A stretch of DNA of 64,000 bases from a virus. The DNA lies in the UHGV virus genome UHGV-0171999. One strand, 5' to 3'. Each line of letters starts with the position of its first letter. Positions within the stretch are counted from its first letter, which is position 1. Below, in pieces: positions 2,780 through 38,415 of the stretch. The translations under genes were made by a program, and so were the position numbers. The notes under the pieces are model-generated. The model saw only the letters and a program-made list of their open reading frames with translations. It ran no database searches and was not told where the DNA came from.

Positions 2780-3022
2780 ATGAGATTACAACGTCAGAGC
2801 ATTAAAGATTCAGAAGTTAAAGGTAAATGGTATTTTAATATCATCGGTAAAGATTCTGAACTTGTTGAAAAAGCTGAACGTCTTTTGCGTGATATGGGAT
2901 GGGAAGATGAATGCGATGGATGCCCTCTTTATGAGGATGGAGAAAGCGCAGGATTCTGGATTTATCATTCTGACGTCGATCAGTTTAAAGCTGATTGGAA
3001 AATTGTGAAAAAGTCTGTTTAA
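2780..3022 (+). CDS. hypothetical protein
   Basis: 80-aa ORF, AAGGAGA SD. Confidence 0.5.
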   Translation: MRLQRQSIKDSEVKGKWYFNIIGKDSELVEKAERLLRDMGWEDECDGCPLYEDGESAGFWIYHSDVDQFKADWKIVKKSV

Positions 3023-3032
3023 GGAAAATAAT

Positions 3033-3862
<830 letters not shown>

Positions 3863-5155: not shown

Positions 5156-5419
5156 ATGATTTTACGATTTAAAGATACTTCTGGTGTAGTTCTTTTTACA
5201 CTTCCTAATCCAAGTGAGTTAGAAGTTCCAGGACCAGAACAGCCTATTACCATTTATGGTAAAAAATACTATACTCATAAAATGACTCGTGAGTATTTTG
5301 ATAATAAAATTTCTACAGTTAAAACTTCTTCAGATTGTTATTATGATATTACTGTTTTAACGGAAAAACAATATGACGAATTATCGCCGCGTGGGCCGTC
5401 TATGCCAGGTAGTGAATAA
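5156..5419 (+). CDS. hypothetical protein
   Basis: ATG at 5156 after GAGGA; overlaps next ORF by 47 nt so one of the two starts is uncertain. Confidence 0.35.
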
Positions 5420-5699: not shown

Positions 5700-7954
5700 T
5701 TAATGTTATCAAAAGTAGTGGTGTTTCTCAGAGCTTTGACCCGCAAAAAATTATTAAAGTTTTATCTTGGGCAGCTGAAGGAACATCTGTAGATCCTTAT
5801 GAATTATATGAAAATATTAAATCATATCTCCGTGATGGAATGACCACTGATGACATTCAAACCATTGTAATTAAGGCTGCTGCGAATTCTATTTCAGTTG
5901 AAGAGCCTGATTACCAATATGTAGCTGCACGCTGTTTAATGTTTGCTCTTCGTAAGCATGTTTACGGGCAGTATGAACCACGTTCATTTATTGACCATAT
6001 TTCTTACTGTGTAAATGAAGGTAAATATGACCCTGAATTGTTGTCAAAATATTCTGCTGAAGAAATTACATTTTTAGAATCAAAAATTAAGCACGAGCGG
6101 GATATGGAATTTACTTATTCCGGGGCGATGCAATTAAAAGAAAAATATCTCGTTAAAGATAAAACCACTGGTCAAATTTATGAAACTCCGCAGTTTGCAT
6201 TTATGACTATTGGAATGGCATTGCATCAAGATGAACCTGTTGATAGACTAAAACACGTTATTCGTTTTTATGAAGCGGTATCTACTCGACAGATTTCATT
6301 GCCAACTCCTATTATGGCTGGATGTCGTACTCCAACTCGGCAATTTAGTTCATGCGTTGTTATTGAAGCAGGTGATTCGCTGAAGTCTATCAATAAGGCT
6401 TCTGCTTCAATTGTTGAATATATCTCCAAACGAGCTGGAATCGGCATTAACGTTGGTATGATTCGTGCCGAAGGTTCTAAGATTGGCACAGGTGAAGTGC
6501 GTCATACTGGTGTTATTCCTTTTTGGAAACATTTTCAGACTGCTGTTAAATCATGCTCACAGGGTGGAATTCGTGGCGGCGCTGCTACTGCTTATTATCC
6601 TATTTGGCATTTGGAAGTTGAAAATCTTCTCGTTTTGAAAAATAACAAAGGTGTAGAAGAAAACCGTATTCGTCATATGGATTATGGCGTTCAACTGAAT
6701 GACCTAATGATGGAACGATTCGGAAAGAATGATTACATTACTTTGTTCAGTCCGCATGAAATGGGTGGCGAACTTTATTATTCTTATTTTAAAGACCAAG
6801 ACCGATTCCGTGAATTGTACGAAGCCGCAGAAAAAGACCCTAATATTCGTAAAAAGCGTATTAAAGCCCGTGAACTGTTTGAATTGCTCATGACTGAACG
6901 CTCAGGAACAGCAAGGATTTATGTGCAGTTCATTGATAATACGAATAACTATACTCCGTTTATTCGTGAAAAGGCACCTATTCGTCAAAGTAACTTGTGC
7001 TGTGAAATTGCTATTCCAACAAATGACGTGAATAGTCCTGATGCTGAAATTGGATTGTGTACGTTATCTGCATTTGTGTTAGATAACTTCGATTGGCAAG
7101 ATCAAGATAAAATCAACGAATTAGCAGAAGTTCAAGTTCGTGCTCTTGATAATCTTTTGGATTACCAAGGATATCCAGTTCCTGAAGCAGAAAAAGCTAA
7201 AAAGCGTCGAAATCTTGGTGTAGGTGTTACTAACTATGCAGCTTGGCTAGCAAGTAACTTTGCTTCTTATGAAGATGCTAACGATTTAACACATGAACTA
7301 TTTGAGAGATTACAGTATGGACTCATCAAAGCATCCATTAAGCTCGCCAAAGAAAAAGGACCTTGCGAATATTATTCAGACACTCGTTGGTCTCGAGGCG
7401 AATTACCTATCGACTGGTACAATAAAAAGATTGACCAAATCGCAGCTCCAAAATACGTTTGTGACTGGTCGTCGCTGCGGGAAGACCTTAAGCTCTTTGG
7501 CATCCGTAATAGCACATTATCAGCACTTATGCCATGTGAGTCATCTTCCCAAGTTTCTAACAGTACAAACGGTATCGAGCCTCCACGTGGACCAGTCTCT
7601 GTTAAAGAATCAAAAGAGGGCTCCTTTAATCAAGTCGTGCCCAATATTGAGCATAACATAGACCTATATGATTATACATGGAAATTAGCTAAGAAAGGTA
7701 ATAAACCTTATCTTACGCAGGTAGCTATTATGTTGAAATGGGTATGTCAATCAGCTTCAGCGAATACATATTATGACCCGCAGATTTTTCCAAAAGGAAA
7801 GGTTCCAATGTCAGTAATGATTGATGACATGTTATACGGATGGTATTATGGCATTAAAAATTTCTATTATCATAATACCCGTGATGGTTCTGGTACTGAT
7901 GATTATGAAATAGAAACTCCAAAAGCTGAAGATTGCGCAGCGTGTAAATTGTAA
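5690..7954 (+). CDS. nrdA: ribonucleotide reductase large subunit
   Basis: 754 aa, same as T4 NrdA; NLCCEI active-site motif and C-terminal CAACKL. Confidence 0.95.
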   Translation: MQLINVIKSSGVSQSFDPQKIIKVLSWAAEGTSVDPYELYENIKSYLRDGMTTDDIQTIVIKAAANSISVEEPDYQYVAARCLMFALRKHVYGQYEPRSFIDHISYCVNEGKYDPELLSKYSAEEITFLESKIKHERDMEFTYSGAMQLKEKYLVKDKTTGQIYETPQFAFMTIGMALHQDEPVDRLKHVIRFYEAVSTRQISLPTPIMAGCRTPTRQFSSCVVIEAGDSLKSINKASASIVEYISKRAGIGINVGMIRAEGSKIGTGEVRHTGVIPFWKHFQTAVKSCSQGGIRGGAATAYYPIWHLEVENLLVLKNNKGVEENRIRHMDYGVQLNDLMMERFGKNDYITLFSPHEMGGELYYSYFKDQDRFRELYEAAEKDPNIRKKRIKARELFELLMTERSGTARIYVQFIDNTNNYTPFIREKAPIRQSNLCCEIAIPTNDVNSPDAEIGLCTLSAFVLDNFDWQDQDKINELAEVQVRALDNLLDYQGYPVPEAEKAKKRRNLGVGVTNYAAWLASNFASYEDANDLTHELFERLQYGLIKASIKLAKEKGPCEYYSDTRWSRGELPIDWYNKKIDQIAAPKYVCDWSSLREDLKLFGIRNSTLSALMPCESSSQVSNSTNGIEPPRGPVSVKESKEGSFNQVVPNIEHNIDLYDYTWKLAKKGNKPYLTQVAIMLKWVCQSASANTYYDPQIFPKGKVPMSVMIDDMLYGWYYGIKNFYYHNTRDGSGTDDYEIETPKAEDCAACKL

Positions 7955-8595
7955 TGAATTATCAAAAAATCTATAACGACCTAATTTCCCGAGCTCAGGC
8001 TCGGGAATCTTTATCAGAATATAAAGAGACACATCATATAATCCCTAAATGTATGGGAGGTTCTGATGATAAAGAAAATTTAGTTGAATTAACAGGTAGA
8101 GAGCATTTTATAGCTCATTGGCTTTTATGCAAAATATATGACACGCCAGGATTAAAGAAAGCTTTTGGTTTAATGTGCTTGACTGGTAAAAATCGCTCAT
8201 ATAAAATTTCTTCTCAACTATACGAATTAGGTAGACGACGTTTATCTGAAGCTGCCATAGGACGTGAAGTTTCTATAGAAACCAGAGAAAAGATAAGTAG
8301 AGCTCTTAAAGGAAGGAAATTTACCAAAGAGCATTTAGCTCGCATGAGAAAACCTAAAACCGAAGAAGCTAAAAAGAATATAGCTGCTGCTAAAGTCGGC
8401 GTGCTTAATCCGATGTATGGTACAATCTCTCCGACAAGAGATGTTCCTCATACTAAAGAAACTCGTGATTTGATTTCTTTGAGAACTAAGCAAGGTACAG
8501 AGTATCCGCCTTGTCCGCATTGTGGCAAGAAAGTTAATAAAGGCAATGCTTTAAGATGGCATTATGATAAATGTAAATTTAAGGATTCTAAATGA
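7954..8595 (+). CDS. mobE: free-standing HNH homing endonuclease (mobE-like)
   Basis: N-terminal HNH motif ETHHIIPKCMGG...NLVELT..EHF.AHWLL; start overlaps nrdA stop (TAATG) and stop overlaps nrdB start (ATGA); T4 mobE occupies this position. Confidence 0.75.
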   Translation: MNYQKIYNDLISRAQARESLSEYKETHHIIPKCMGGSDDKENLVELTGREHFIAHWLLCKIYDTPGLKKAFGLMCLTGKNRSYKISSQLYELGRRRLSEAAIGREVSIETREKISRALKGRKFTKEHLARMRKPKTEEAKKNIAAAKVGVLNPMYGTISPTRDVPHTKETRDLISLRTKQGTEYPPCPHCGKKVNKGNALRWHYDKCKFKDSK

Positions 8596-9770
8596 GTACA
8601 GTTTTTAATACATCCCCTGTTAATATTTTAACTGAGCCGATGTTTTTTGGTTCTGGATTGGGTTTAGCTCGATATGATATTCAACGACATAGAGTATTTG
8701 AAGAACTTATTGAGAAATCTTTATCATTTTTCTGGCGTCCTGAAGAAGTAAACTTAATGATGGATGCTGCGCAATTTAACAAGCTTCCTCAGTATCAGCA
8801 AGATATTTTTACTAATAACCTGAAGTATCAATCACTTTTGGATAGCATTCAGGGTCGTGCACCGTCTGCTGTACTTATGTCATTAATTTCAGACCCAAGC
8901 CTTGATACATGGGTTGCTACGTGGACTTTTAGTGAAACTATTCACAGCCGTTCATATACACATATCATGCGAAATCTTTATACTGATCCATCGAAGGTAT
9001 TTGATGAAATTGTATTAGATGAAGCTATTATGAAACGTGCTGAATCCATTGGACGTTATTATGATGATGTTCTGATTAAAACCCGTGAATGGGAAAATGC
9101 TAAAGAATTTGTAGAACTAGCTAAAGAATCTCCTGATGCTGATTTTCGTTTAAATCGAGCTATTAAACAAGAAGCCGAAGCTAAACGTGCTTTAATGAAA
9201 TCTCTTTACCTCTGCTTGCATGTAATCAACGCATTGGAAGCTATTCGTTTTTATGTATCTTTCGCATGTACCTTTAACTTCCATAAGAACATGGAAATCA
9301 TGGAAGGTAATGCCAAGATTATGAAGTTCATTGCTCGTGATGAACAGCTTCACCTTAAAGGCACTCAATATATTATTCGTCAACTTCAACTTGGCACTGA
9401 TGGTGATGAATGGGTTAAAATTGCTCAAGAGTGTGAACAAGAAGCAGTTGATATTTTCATGGAAGTTAACCGTCAAGAAAAAGACTGGGCAGTTCATTTA
9501 TTTAAAGATGGTGATGTTCCTGGATTAAATACAAATAGCATGTGGAGCTTTATTGATTACTTAACTGTATCTCGTATGAAGCAGTGCGGTCTTCCGTGCC
9601 CAATTACCGATGCTCCGGTTAAACATCCGTATCCTTGGATTCGTGAATATCTTAATTCTGATAATGTTCAATCCGCGCCACAAGAAGTAGAACTGTCATC
9701 TTACCTTGTTGCACAGATTGATAATGATGTTGATGATAAAGTTATGATGAGTTTTAAAAAATATTTTTAA
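8592..9770 (+). CDS. nrdB: ribonucleotide reductase small subunit, uninterrupted (no intron)
   Basis: 392 aa contiguous; ferritin-like di-iron motifs (EAIRFYVSFA, ARDEQLHL). Confidence 0.95.
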   Translation: MSTVFNTSPVNILTEPMFFGSGLGLARYDIQRHRVFEELIEKSLSFFWRPEEVNLMMDAAQFNKLPQYQQDIFTNNLKYQSLLDSIQGRAPSAVLMSLISDPSLDTWVATWTFSETIHSRSYTHIMRNLYTDPSKVFDEIVLDEAIMKRAESIGRYYDDVLIKTREWENAKEFVELAKESPDADFRLNRAIKQEAEAKRALMKSLYLCLHVINALEAIRFYVSFACTFNFHKNMEIMEGNAKIMKFIARDEQLHLKGTQYIIRQLQLGTDGDEWVKIAQECEQEAVDIFMEVNRQEKDWAVHLFKDGDVPGLNTNSMWSFIDYLTVSRMKQCGLPCPITDAPVKHPYPWIREYLNSDNVQSAPQEVELSSYLVAQIDNDVDDKVMMSFKKYF

Positions 9771-35305: not shown

Positions 35306-35536
35306 TTAAAAGCTTTCTTCTACTTCATCGTCTGAATCTTCTAATTCAGCTCTTTTTCCTGCCAAAGCATCTCTGACTGAGATGTCATCAGTATCTTTTA
35401 ATTCAGTTTCTTTAACTCTTTTCTTGTAATAAGCTTCAAGTTCTTCTAGACCTTCTAATGTTTGACAAGAGGCAATTTTACCCATAAATTCATCAATAGA
35501 AGCTTCATAAAGAAATTGTTTAAATTCTAGTAACAT
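35306..35536 (-). CDS. uvsW.1: UvsW.1 small acidic protein
   Basis: 76 aa from ATG at 35536 with GGAG SD; track start 35548 is an in-frame TTG. Confidence 0.7.
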   Translation of the reverse strand: MLLEFKQFLYEASIDEFMGKIASCQTLEGLEELEAYYKKRVKETELKDTDDISVRDALAGKRAELEDSDDEVEESF

Positions 35537-35547
35537 CTTTTTCTCCA

Positions 35548-35563
35548 AAGGGCCGAAGCCCTT
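35548..35563 (-). promoter_or_regulatory. Stem-loop (UUCG tetraloop on the transcript) between the HNH gene and uvsW.1
   Basis: AAGGGC-CGAA-GCCCTT on plus; overlaps the HNH stop codon. Confidence 0.5.
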
Positions 35564-36254
35564 ATAAATTAACTGTTTTTCTAAGTATTCTTAGTTTGTA
35601 CATTGATAATCCAGTAGCTTTAGAAGCGTCTTTCATACATTTATATTTAACACCATTTACTTCTATAGGTTTAGCAGCTGGGTTATTAGCTCCTGAATTA
35701 TCTGGCATGTTATCTTTAATTTTCTGAATAGATTTAGCGGAATGTTTCCTTCCGTACATGCCGTTATTTTTACCCGATTGATTGATCGAATGTAATCTTT
35801 TAGCTTCTTCAGTCCATTTCGTTGGGTTCATTCTTTTAGTTTTACTAATTTTATTTCCCCATGTAATTGGACGACTTTTCATGAGTTTTGACATATATTG
35901 TTTATGTTCTTCCGTATGGTGTTTTCCGTAAAATGGATTACCTTCGCCGGATTGAAGTTCTGCCATTTTACGACGTTCCCATGCGTAAGATTTATTGACG
36001 TGTCTTTCATGAGTATTTGAATTCATTCCCATACATATAACGGCTTTAATTATACCATAATGGTTTGGATGAATTTTAGCTAAAAGTTTATGGGCTATAA
36101 AATGTTCTTCAGCCGTTAGTTCTACTAAATTACACTTATCATTTGTACCACCCATGCATCTAGGAATTATATGATGAGTTTCAGTGTATCCATTAAGGCG
36201 AGCCCGATTCTGGGCTCTATTAATTAAATTATCATATATTAATTTATAATTCAA
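35562..36254 (-). CDS. free-standing HNH homing endonuclease, paralog of the nrdA-nrdB HNH gene, inserted between uvsW and uvsW.1
   Basis: N-terminus MNYKLIYDNLINRAQ..ETHHIIPRCMGG..NLVELT.EEHFIAH aligns with 7954-8595; starts on TTG overlapping the uvsW TGA (TTGA) with GAGG 6 nt upstream. Confidence 0.75.
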   Translation of the reverse strand: MNYKLIYDNLINRAQNRARLNGYTETHHIIPRCMGGTNDKCNLVELTAEEHFIAHKLLAKIHPNHYGIIKAVICMGMNSNTHERHVNKSYAWERRKMAELQSGEGNPFYGKHHTEEHKQYMSKLMKSRPITWGNKISKTKRMNPTKWTEEAKRLHSINQSGKNNGMYGRKHSAKSIQKIKDNMPDNSGANNPAAKPIEVNGVKYKCMKDASKATGLSMYKLRILRKTVNL

Positions 36255-37759
36255 AGTTTAACCTCTTTCATCACATAATTGAACTTCTCATCAGCATAAC
36301 GCTGAATACGATCAAGTCCATGTTTTAAAAGATAGTTTAAATGCGAGTATTTTTTAGAAGATGTTTTTGATTTAGAAACTACGCCCGCGTTATCTATGAG
36401 GTCCCAGACTGTTGCGATTGTTTTAGAACCATGCTTACGTAATACACGACCGATTGTTTGTAATACAATGATTTTTGATTTAACACCGTGTGCTAAAACA
36501 ACGTGATGCAGATTTTTAACTGAAATACCAGTAGAAAATACACCATAACTAGCTACTATAATTATTCCTTTACCGTTTTCAGCTAAGGTTTTCATTATAT
36601 TGCGGGTTTCGGTATCAACTTCCCCTGATACGTAATAAACTTTATCGTATTCATTTTTAATTAAATCGAAAATAGCTTTACCGTGCGATACGTGTTTAAA
36701 CATGACAAAAGCGTTTTCATCTTTTTGCGCAAGCTTAATAGCTAATTTAGCGATCCATTTATTTCTTTTACTGAGTCCAGTAATAATTTTTATTTCTTCT
36801 TGGTAAGTTTTTCCCTTTAATTTAGTAGTGAACTCATCGGGATAGCGAAGAAAAATACTATTAATTTTTAACTCAGTTACTTGTCCATCTTCCATTAATT
36901 TAGAAGTCGTTACTGGCTTAAATATTTCACCAAACATTCCAACATACTGCATGATATTAGCTTTGCCATCACGTAATGAACCCGATAGACCAAATTTGAA
37001 CATGCAGTTATTTAAACCTGATATGATAGATGAAATACTTTTTCCTGTAGCAAGATGACATTCATCATTCATCATCATTCCAAATTGTGAGAACCATTCT
37101 TTTGGTTGTTTTACTACAGTTTGCCATGTACCAACAACGACTGGTGCATCATTTTTATATTTATCATCTTTTGATGCTCCACCGCCAATTTTCTTTATCA
37201 TTGCGTGACTGAATAAACGATAATCAACAAAGTCATCAGCCATCTGAGTTGTTAAAGCAGTTGTTGGAACAATGATAAGAATTTTACCTTCATAATTTTC
37301 CAAATAATACCGAGCGAGCAAAGCTTGAATTAAAGATTTACCTGCGGATGTTGGAAGATTAAGAATTCTACGACGATTAACTAATCCTTCGAACACTGCA
37401 TCTTTTTGATACCAATGTGGTTCAATTCTTTTATTTCCTGAATAGATTTCTAACTTAGAAAGCCATTCATCGAAATCTTTTCTTGATAATTCTTCTTTTT
37501 CGTTAATCTGTGGGTCAATCCAGGCTTTATAGCCAAAGTTATCACAGAACTTTTTAATTTGCCCGACTAAGCCGAATGGAAGAAGACGATTATAATCTAA
37601 AAGACGGATTCGTCCATCCCAGTTGCCATATCTGAAGCGAGGATTAAACCTATATCCATCGGCCTCAAACGAAAAGAAATCTCTTAATTCGTGGAACGTG
37701 CTCTCTTCACAATCGATGCGTACATGACTGAAGTCGTGAAAATGTACTTTAATATCCAT
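36251..37759 (-). CDS. uvsW: UvsW DNA/RNA helicase
   Basis: 502 aa; SF2 helicase motifs (PTSAGKS, DECH). Confidence 0.9.
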   Translation of the reverse strand: MDIKVHFHDFSHVRIDCEESTFHELRDFFSFEADGYRFNPRFRYGNWDGRIRLLDYNRLLPFGLVGQIKKFCDNFGYKAWIDPQINEKEELSRKDFDEWLSKLEIYSGNKRIEPHWYQKDAVFEGLVNRRRILNLPTSAGKSLIQALLARYYLENYEGKILIIVPTTALTTQMADDFVDYRLFSHAMIKKIGGGASKDDKYKNDAPVVVGTWQTVVKQPKEWFSQFGMMMNDECHLATGKSISSIISGLNNCMFKFGLSGSLRDGKANIMQYVGMFGEIFKPVTTSKLMEDGQVTELKINSIFLRYPDEFTTKLKGKTYQEEIKIITGLSKRNKWIAKLAIKLAQKDENAFVMFKHVSHGKAIFDLIKNEYDKVYYVSGEVDTETRNIMKTLAENGKGIIIVASYGVFSTGISVKNLHHVVLAHGVKSKIIVLQTIGRVLRKHGSKTIATVWDLIDNAGVVSKSKTSSKKYSHLNYLLKHGLDRIQRYADEKFNYVMKEVKL

Positions 37760-37761
37760 AA

Positions 37762-38379
37762 TTATGCCTTACTAAATTTGCCTTTAGAGTCTCTTTTCAT
37801 GAGACGACCTTTAATAAATCCGTCGGGAATAATACCGTCTGGTTGTATTAATTTATTTATTACGCCATTATTGACCCAAAAAGTTCCTGTGGTAGTCGGT
37901 TTAACTTTACATCCTTTTCTAGACTTTCTATTAGGATGAACCATCCCTTTTACAAATCCTTCTGGAACAAGTTCTCCAGGTTTAATAAAAATATTTTTAG
38001 TTCCATTAGTGTAACAAGTTTTACCTAATACCGTTCCTGGTGAGTTTTCAAATCTTTTAGCGGAAGATTCTTTCATCTTTGCTATAACCTCTGTAGTCAT
38101 AACAATTCCACCAATTCCACCGGGTTTCATATTATAATAATTTTTGCTTTTTATTAGTTCAGGAGTTATAATTTCTTCTTCATACATGTACGCTTCTTCG
38201 GAAGTTTTAAACTCTTTTAGTATTTTTCTAGAGAAATTGTTTTCACCATATTTCTTTATAGCCTGCTGAATTGCCTTACCGGAACCAAGGTAACCATCAT
38301 TCAAGTCGTCAGTAGAATGCTTTCCTATATACTTTTTACCGTTTATTAGATTTGTTGTTTCATATACAAAGTGGTACAT
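37762..38379 (-). CDS. segE: GIY-YIG homing endonuclease SegE
   Basis: N-terminal GIY-YIG motif YHFVYETTNLINGKKYIGKHS; position next to uvsW as in T4. Confidence 0.75.
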   Translation of the reverse strand: MYHFVYETTNLINGKKYIGKHSTDDLNDGYLGSGKAIQQAIKKYGENNFSRKILKEFKTSEEAYMYEEEIITPELIKSKNYYNMKPGGIGGIVMTTEVIAKMKESSAKRFENSPGTVLGKTCYTNGTKNIFIKPGELVPEGFVKGMVHPNRKSRKGCKVKPTTTGTFWVNNGVINKLIQPDGIIPDGFIKGRLMKRDSKGKFSKA

Positions 38380-38407: not shown

Positions 38408-38415
38408 TATTTATA
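38408..38415 (-). promoter_or_regulatory. Possible late promoter TATAAATA upstream of segE
   Basis: Exact TATAAATA on minus strand 28 nt before the segE ATG. Confidence 0.35.

Follow-up and report, generated by a model that had tools for sequence, protein, structure and literature searches.

The window analysed here, which is the whole 64,000-nucleotide (nt) stretch of the virus genome UHGV-0171999, carries on its minus strand an open reading frame (ORF) of 230 amino acids (aa) for a putative free-standing homing endonuclease of the HNH type. The ORF lies at 35,562–36,254 (the feature is shown at 35,548–36,254) between the helicase gene uvsW and the gene uvsW.1, and its extent and TTG start follow from the ORF listing together with the sequence itself. 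Along the minus strand, the ORF listing gives the gene order segE, uvsW, the 230-aa ORF, and uvsW.1. The host gene of the insertion, uvsW (36,251–37,759, minus strand), encodes 502 aa. On the far side of the ORF, uvsW.1 (35,306–35,536, minus strand) encodes 76 aa from an ATG at 35,536 with its own GGAG; it matches the Pfam family UvsW-1 with an E-value of 1.7e-30, and annotations of relatives give it as 231 nt. On the other side of uvsW lies segE (37,762–38,379, minus strand), a homing endonuclease gene of the GIY-YIG type, whose product shares 99% identity with SegE of phage T4 and matches the Pfam family SegE_GIY-YIG. An earlier note on this DNA had described an extra HNH-type ORF between uvsW and uvsW.1 with its start inside the uvsW stop codon, and the sequence agrees with this description. 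The same note had seen uvsW as flanked by two different endonuclease genes, which holds as well, with segE upstream and the HNH gene downstream.

The junction between uvsW and the endonuclease ORF reads ATG AAA GAG GTT AAA CTT TGA ATT ATA AAT on the minus strand. The TTG start codon (36,252–36,254) overlaps the uvsW TGA (36,253–36,251) as TTGA, and the same arrangement is found in seven Tequatrovirus alleles. A Shine-Dalgarno-like GAGG (36,262–36,265, minus strand) precedes the TTG with the spacer TTAAACT, which counts 7 nt instead of the 6 nt given previously. This GAGG is composed of the Glu codon GAG and the G that opens the next codon, GTT for Val, within a replacement uvsW tail that is described below; the equivalent site in T4 reads ACA GTT. 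Because a TAA closes the endonuclease frame two codons ahead of the TTG and the next in-frame ATG is codon 34, past the His-His of the HNH motif, no other start would retain the conserved N-terminus. Direct reading of the frame thereby confirmed the earlier statement that TTG is the only in-frame start at the aligned position.

Alignment with empty sites places the insertion, relative to T4 and T2, at 35,577–36,265 on the minus strand (689 nt), with boundaries that are ambiguous by a shared AAA. At empty sites, uvsW ends with ATG AAA ACA GTT AAT TTA TAA (MKTVNL and stop). In the window, it ends with the replacement tail ATG AAA GAG GTT AAA CTT TGA (MKEVKL and stop; 36,251–36,271, minus strand), and a copy of the resident tail, AGA AAA ACA GTT AAT TTA TAA (..RKTVNL and stop; 35,562–35,582, minus strand), is located 0.7 kilobases (kb) downstream, in frame, where it forms the last codons and the stop of the endonuclease ORF. 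Over its last 18 nt, this copy exactly matches the end of uvsW in resequenced T4, T2, and other empty sites. Directly after it comes the GGGCTTCGGCCC hairpin (35,550–35,561, minus strand), unchanged from its place after the uvsW stop in empty sites, and then the ribosome-binding site of uvsW.1. The comparison has shown that the cassette gives uvsW a new tail and stop, and that the endonuclease gene begins inside this stop and finishes with the resident tail and stop; it is the Leu codon CTT of the cassette that creates the TTG start.

The encoded protein matches PHROG 655 ("homing endonuclease") with an E-value of 3.9e-60, which, like the NUMOD3 match given below, is well outside what chance would produce, and the same PHROG contains the product of a second ORF of the window at 7,954–8,595. 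The HNH catalytic core, located by alignment and in an AlphaFold2 model, comprises residues 25–55 (ETHHIIPRCMGG...N42...EEH51FIAH55; 36,090–36,182, minus strand). In an alignment of 37 relatives, H28, N42, H51, and H55 are invariant and H27 is nearly so, and the catalytic H-N-H residues are also invariant in comparison with MobE of T4 and the relatives from Jiaodavirus. The canonical HNH N-terminus noticed earlier is thus intact, with no catalytic decay. The Pfam HNH family (PF01844) scores below its gathering threshold (16.2 bits against 21.4, E-value 0.012), whereas the paralog at 7,954–8,595 passes with 24.3 bits. The AlphaFold2 model has a mean predicted local distance difference test (pLDDT) score of 86.5, with means of 93–96 in 10-residue blocks across residues 1–70, and it places β-strands at residues 25–28 and 43–46 and a helix at residues 48–61, a predicted strand-strand-helix unit bearing the H-N-H residues.

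Behind the catalytic core, two stretches match Pfam NUMOD3 (PF07460) with an E-value of 7.6e-14 and 51.8 bits against a cut-off of 20.4. The best stretch covers residues 94–122 (35,889–35,975, minus strand), and the second repeat follows it. A C-terminal helix-turn-helix resembling the DNA-binding domain of I-TevI is predicted at about residues 193–218 (35,601–35,678, minus strand). Pfam gave a weak match to the I-TevI DNA-binding domain at this C-terminus, and the best match in the Protein Data Bank (PDB) is the I-TevI DNA-binding domain. Whole-chain fold searches against HNH structures gave weak results because the model is an extended multi-domain chain. As predicted, the protein is built of an HNH nuclease at the N-terminus, linkers of the NUMOD3 type, and an I-TevI-like helix-turn-helix at the C-terminus; the likeness to I-TevI suggests a tethered nuclease cutting away from its binding site.

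The gene is present at ≥95% protein identity in 49 phage records, and 49 hold the whole 1.4-kb region, whereas T4, T2, and about 450 other matching records are empty at the site. In both the T4 RefSeq entry and resequenced T4, uvsW.1 follows uvsW directly with no insert, in accordance with the earlier statement that the two genes abut in T4 (also PMC1524935). T2 is likewise empty and T6 is occupied. The T6 record (AP018814, EcT6_00183) annotates a "homing endonuclease" with the same 693-nt, TTG-initiated coordinates, and the gene is labelled mobD in Yersinia phage PST. T6, PST, and about 47 other Tequatrovirus records carry it at the same position with 97–99.6% protein identity, and the window copy differs from the T6/PST-type copies by few substitutions, with no essential difference. 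Elsewhere it appears under the labels mobile endonuclease E, group I intron endonuclease, NUMOD3 protein, or hypothetical, and some records use the internal ATG. In a survey from 2010, T6 was already credited with three mob-like HNH genes (PMC2993671, Table 5). The gene is therefore not new, being already known through annotation, and it is biochemically uncharacterised. Among the viral contigs of IMG/VR, only two loci were orthologous, and the remaining matches were distant paralogs at other sites. The two endonuclease genes that flank uvsW are distributed independently: W143, SYGD1, ZN18, and UFV-AREG1 have only the HNH gene, T4 has only segE, and ESh30 and the window carry both.

Some records around this site need to be read with care. 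The 587-aa uvsW of the T4 RefSeq entry is a recognised sequencing error (PMC1524935). At locus 5180–5195, NC_000866 has TTTAATAAGC in place of the TTTATAAGGGC found in resequenced T4 and in all relatives; the RefSeq reading fuses uvsW and uvsW.1 into the 587-aa ORF, and the error is still spreading into other annotations. In the Klebsiella phage Metamorpho (locus 1–2120), uvsW is annotated as a two-piece joined coding sequence (CDS) around the HNH gene, which itself is labelled GIY-YIG; both the joined CDS and the label look like annotation artefacts. Two further observations were made in related genomes. In phage IME339 (locus ~2030–2090), a 60-nt tandem duplication in uvsW.1 results in a product of 96 aa. 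The Logan contig DRR827159_75102 has a 232-aa ORF without a Pfam match between uvsY.-2 and uvsY (2897–3595), a place that holds no more than a small ORF in the relatives compared; this may be a further insertion.

Full-length relatives of the endonuclease with 54–70% identity lie between uvsW and uvsW.1 in several T4-like lineages, among them Jiaodavirus, Dhakavirus-like, and Morganella phages. The occupied sites include those of the Klebsiella Jiaodavirus phages pzk-kv6-1, Roth77, and Metamorpho (ATGA overlap), the Escherichia phages PSD2002 and TH40 (TTGA overlap), and the Morganella phage Rgz1 (ATGA overlap). Dhakavirus Bp7 (locus 1089 to at least 1776) has a variant HNH gene of 260 aa with a CTTTGA overlap and the N-terminus MNYQKIYDDL. 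The 4-nt overlap with the uvsW stop is found in all occupied lineages examined, and the start codon tracks the last UvsW codon, TTA resulting in ATG, and CTT or ATT in TTG. The copy of the tail at the downstream end recurs too: the PSD2002 gene ends with ATG AAA CAG GTG GAT TTA TGA, exactly as uvsW does at the empty site of Dhakavirus QL01, an 18-nt repeat in TH40 is near-perfect, and Jiaodavirus keeps CTATGA downstream, which contains the uvsW.1 start as well. As read from these junctions, the gene in the occupied lineages of other genera is set within an unbroken chain of overlapping stops and starts. The C-terminal half of the Bp7 protein is unrelated, which suggests domain swapping among endonucleases at one site.

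All seven Tequatrovirus alleles are intact, with 40 variable sites (29 synonymous and 11 nonsynonymous) and neither a frameshift nor a stop. The ratio of nonsynonymous to synonymous polymorphism (pN/pS) is between 0.03 and 0.12 for the allele pairs with six or more synonymous differences. Judged from these alleles, the endonuclease gene is under purifying selection. One stretch of 107 nt (ORF nt 502–608; window 35,647–35,753) has no variation among the seven alleles where the density across the gene would predict about 6 variable sites; it could reflect a recent sweep, recombination, or an embedded signal.

The end of uvsW next to the insertion is also distinctive. We consider a recoded 3' tract of uvsW (36,272–36,379, minus strand) as a candidate co-conversion and immunity tract and as the probable location of the target. 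Across occupied alleles, such a tract takes up the last 108–160 nt of uvsW and is mostly synonymous. When the seven occupied Tequatrovirus genomes were compared with four empty ones, 28 of the 29 fixed differences clustered in the 108 nt that precede the tail, and the downstream side had none. Between the window and T4, the last 24 uvsW codons differ at 12 of 72 nt with a single amino-acid change, and the preceding 246 nt of uvsW have 4 differences. Jiaodavirus independently gives the same picture, with all 26 fixed differences between occupied and empty genomes confined to the final 140 nt of uvsW. Across the final 159 nt, pzk-kv6-1 and the empty phage PKO111 have 30 differences but only 3 amino-acid changes. 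These two phages are 99.4% identical far to the left and 99.0% to the right, and 81.2% identical over the final 160 nt of uvsW. Metamorpho and pzk-kv6-1, on the other hand, share 88.0% far to the left and 91.3% to the right, compared with 99.4% in the last 160 nt of uvsW and 99.3% in the gene. The tract and the gene together are 99% identical in Jiaodavirus genomes differing by 9–12% elsewhere, which indicates recent horizontal spread. A block of tract and gene that is near-identical in divergent backgrounds and stops at the resident tail fits what repeated homing with leftward co-conversion would predict. Just before the tail, the 9-mer GTAATGAAA is intact in all five empty sites compared (T4, T2, PKO111, QL01, and Kc304) and altered in all six occupied ones. 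This 9-mer might be the core of the target, although it is only a lead, since the flanks of the occupied sites may be related by descent.

That T-even phages carry free-standing HNH homing endonucleases is textbook knowledge. The nearest relative of known function is MobE of T4. The ORF at 7,954–8,595 (plus strand), between nrdA and nrdB, is a mobE ortholog with 71% identity to T4 MobE and a paralog of the ORF studied here. The two proteins of the window share 38% identity over 183 aa (E-value 3e-32), and their codons 1–33 align residue for residue, in agreement with the paralogy proposed earlier. Compared with T4 MobE itself, the identity is 42% over about 180 aa (E-value 8e-34). A tblastn search of the ORF against T4 found five matching places, the best of which is the mobE locus; MobA–D of T4 were ranked through this search only, and the individual comparison was made with MobE. 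The homology to the Mob proteins runs through the N-terminal domain.

Both MobE and the uvsW-site protein have the MNY..ETHHIIP.CMGG..N..EHFIAH core and NUMOD3 repeats. Both genes are free-standing, follow the orientation of the host operon without their own promoter consensus, and overlap the stop or start codons of their neighbours, and in both cases polymorphisms in the adjacent host gene separate carriers from non-carriers (PMC2790892 for MobE). MobE is promoterless, depends on upstream transcription, and nicks the neighbouring gene, its own genome being thought to be protected by polymorphisms at the nick site (PMC2790892). There are also differences. The site and target of MobE are in the 5' region of nrdB, whereas the site here is the 3' end of uvsW, where the target is presumed to be. 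MobE has a zinc-finger-like CPHCGK at its C-terminus in place of the predicted I-TevI-like helix-turn-helix. The TTG start and the replaced and duplicated last codons of the host gene belong to the uvsW-site gene. MobE has been characterised experimentally, whereas the uvsW-site enzyme is known here from its sequence. The MobE ortholog in the window is near-identical to T4 MobE at both ends; its middle part (residues ~61–120) has diverged and is shorter by 19 aa. Its gene shares 1 nt with the stop of nrdA and 4 nt with the start of nrdB. The nrdB gene of the window (8,592–9,770, plus strand) is an uninterrupted ORF of 392 aa, and the I-TevIII group I intron of T4 appears to be absent despite the presence of mobE.

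Other known enzymes are less close. I-TevI resembles the uvsW-site protein in its NUMOD3-type linker elements and, by prediction, in its C-terminal helix-turn-helix, but it has a GIY-YIG catalytic domain and is encoded in an intron, whereas the uvsW-site gene encodes an HNH enzyme outside any intron. I-HmuI, an HNH nicking enzyme of the Bacillus phage SPO1, is intron-encoded, and its similarity is too weak to serve as evidence by itself. SegE of T4 is likewise free-standing and has been reported to target uvsW (Table 1 of PMC2988022), but it belongs to an unrelated nuclease family, lies at the opposite end of uvsW, and is independently distributed.

How might the gene be expressed? The nearest exact T4 late-promoter consensus, TATAAATA, lies upstream of segE (38,408–38,415, minus strand). 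The consensus scan found no exact TATAAATA between uvsW and the endonuclease gene or upstream within uvsW, and sigma-70-like sites upstream were at or below the shuffled expectation. On these consensus scans we rejected a promoter of its own. Immediately after the TTG, TATAAATT (36,242–36,249, minus strand) is one mismatch away from the late-promoter consensus. As a promoter it was dismissed, since PSD2002, TH40, and Jiaodavirus do not share it and its position cannot drive the endonuclease ORF; its presence is probably due to chance. A frameshift fusion of UvsW and the endonuclease at the prfB-like CTT TGA was rejected as well, because the endonuclease frame is −1 with a TAA two codons before the TTG, and because the +1 frame from CTT TGA reaches a TAA after two codons. 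Folding of 36,195–36,300 gave no significant RNA structure at the start (z = −1.41 against shuffles), the only stable hairpin in this region being at codons 13–19. We thus discarded the idea that folding of the RNA masks the ribosome-binding site, as happens in other endonuclease genes of T4, because the fold was no better than shuffles.

The earlier note had suggested weak, translationally coupled expression. The 4-nt overlap on which the suggestion was built recurs in other lineages, as TTGA in PSD2002, TH40, and Bp7 and as ATGA in two lineages. This recurrence supports the coupling, although the coupling itself is still inferential. Given the apparently promoterless arrangement, the failure to match an intron or other RNA family, the lack of significant RNA structure at the start, the 4-nt overlap, and the precedent of MobE, the gene probably depends on the late uvsW message for its transcription and on termination-reinitiation for a low level of translation.

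From the combined sequence comparisons, we consider it highly probable that the ORF encodes a functional free-standing homing endonuclease of the Mob type with an HNH domain, inserted into the last codons of uvsW. Its transcript would be the late segE/uvsW message, on which termination-reinitiation from uvsW would yield small amounts of the enzyme. In a mixed infection, the enzyme would nick or cut uvsW alleles that lack the gene near their 3' end, where the candidate target core is ...TAC GTA ATG AAA together with the tail. Recombinational repair from the occupied genome would then copy the gene together with 110–160 base pairs (bp) of recoded uvsW. The home allele would be protected by mostly synonymous substitutions and by the splitting of the site; the change of GTAATGAAA to GTGATGAAA, together with the neighbouring synonymous changes, would be expected to prevent cutting. 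Apart from the spacer count, the earlier interpretation of an extra HNH homing endonuclease and paralog of the gene between nrdA and nrdB is upheld as a whole.

Several points weigh against this interpretation. Our literature search found no paper describing an endonuclease gene at the uvsW site or its target. Because there is no significant RNA structure at the start, low expression rests only on the TTG and the overlap. The contrast in GTAATGAAA between empty and occupied sites is not phylogenetically independent. The recoded tract could be only a passive co-conversion scar from a divergent donor and have no part in immunity. Finally, the gene-less Escherichia phage OES_C-3 (locus 1900–1950) has part of the occupied-type uvsW patch (GVVSKSKTSSKKYSH) and shifts to the empty type some 70 nt ahead of the stop. 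This site is either a recombinant or an indication that the patch can exist without the gene, and a patch without the gene implies that the tract and the gene are separable.

An active nuclease might also have been selected mainly for competition, by excluding or degrading co-infecting relatives or by stimulating local recombination, with its spread being secondary. Homing endonucleases of T-even and other phages mediate marker exclusion and interference during co-infection (PMC2988022; PMC11620839), and the gene occurs in only about 49 records despite the purifying selection. We regard a mainly competitive role as unlikely, because the cassette and the one-sided tract in divergent backgrounds are what self-propagation predicts, even though the data do not separate competition from homing.

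It is improbable that the gene is a defunct or domesticated remnant, that is, a past invader that has lost its mobility and persists either passively or because it serves some other role. Such a remnant would suit the Pfam HNH score below threshold and the TTG start, and T4 does have defunct endonuclease genes such as I-TevIII (PMC2790892). However, the seven alleles are under strong purifying selection without a frameshift or stop, the catalytic residues are invariant, and the 99%-identical Jiaodavirus cassette, with both flanks 9–12% different, points to recent transfer.

If the internal ATG at codon 34 were the true start, as in the 594-nt CDS annotated in ESh30 and W143, the product would bind DNA but lack the His-His of the nuclease motif. 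ATG is a stronger start than TTG, but several observations make this alternative very improbable. Codons 1–33 align residue for residue with MobE and with the relatives in six lineages, and the aligned start is an ATG in Jiaodavirus and the Morganella phage. In codons 1–32, two of four variable sites are synonymous and no stop occurs, and the frame opens just two codons before the TTG, which is annotated as the start in T6, SYGD1, ZN18, and UFV-AREG1.

We give almost no credence to an endonuclease encoded in a group I intron splitting a single uvsW gene, for which the "group I intron endonuclease" labels in G2540-3 and G28, the joined CDS of Metamorpho, and a weak match to NCBIfam TIGR01453 (30 bits against a cut-off of 56) could be invoked, since no Rfam intron or other RNA family matched at an E-value up to 1, uvsW and uvsW.1 are separate ORFs in empty sites with the fused T4 RefSeq gene being a sequencing error (PMC1524935), and uvsW ends on its own stop, within which the endonuclease ORF starts.

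Returning to the mobile, functional HNH endonuclease, a further-reaching possibility is that the cassette amounts to more than an endonuclease with a passive scar, namely a self-contained module for replacing a gene end that is conserved across at least five T4-like lineages. Such a module would carry the recoded last 110–160 bp of uvsW, which would give immunity to its own enzyme, and in addition the new tail and stop. It would thread itself into the coupling chain from uvsW through the endonuclease to uvsW.1, with the last UvsW codon deciding whether its start is ATG or TTG. We propose this only tentatively and consider it somewhat doubtful. If it were true, a single lineage of enzymes could home into a conserved coding 3' end (core ...TAC GTA ATG AAA...) across genera and leave the host gene undamaged.

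In summary, the uvsW-site gene carries little weight as a discovery, being an ordinary, neatly built example of a well-known element. The replacement and duplication of the tail, the one-sided tract, and the alternation of ATG and TTG are tidy details of a familiar kind of element. The insertion accounts for the local anomalous divergence in uvsW, and the comparison of records exposed inconsistent or wrong public annotations of the gene. The enzyme would be an uncharacterised sixth enzyme of the Mob type with a sharply bounded candidate target in the last 40–110 bp of uvsW, for which naturally resistant and sensitive alleles and a natural series of ATG and TTG starts are available. It might thus be a convenient system for addressing how such an endonuclease avoids its own genome, how far co-conversion extends, and how expression is throttled by translational coupling.

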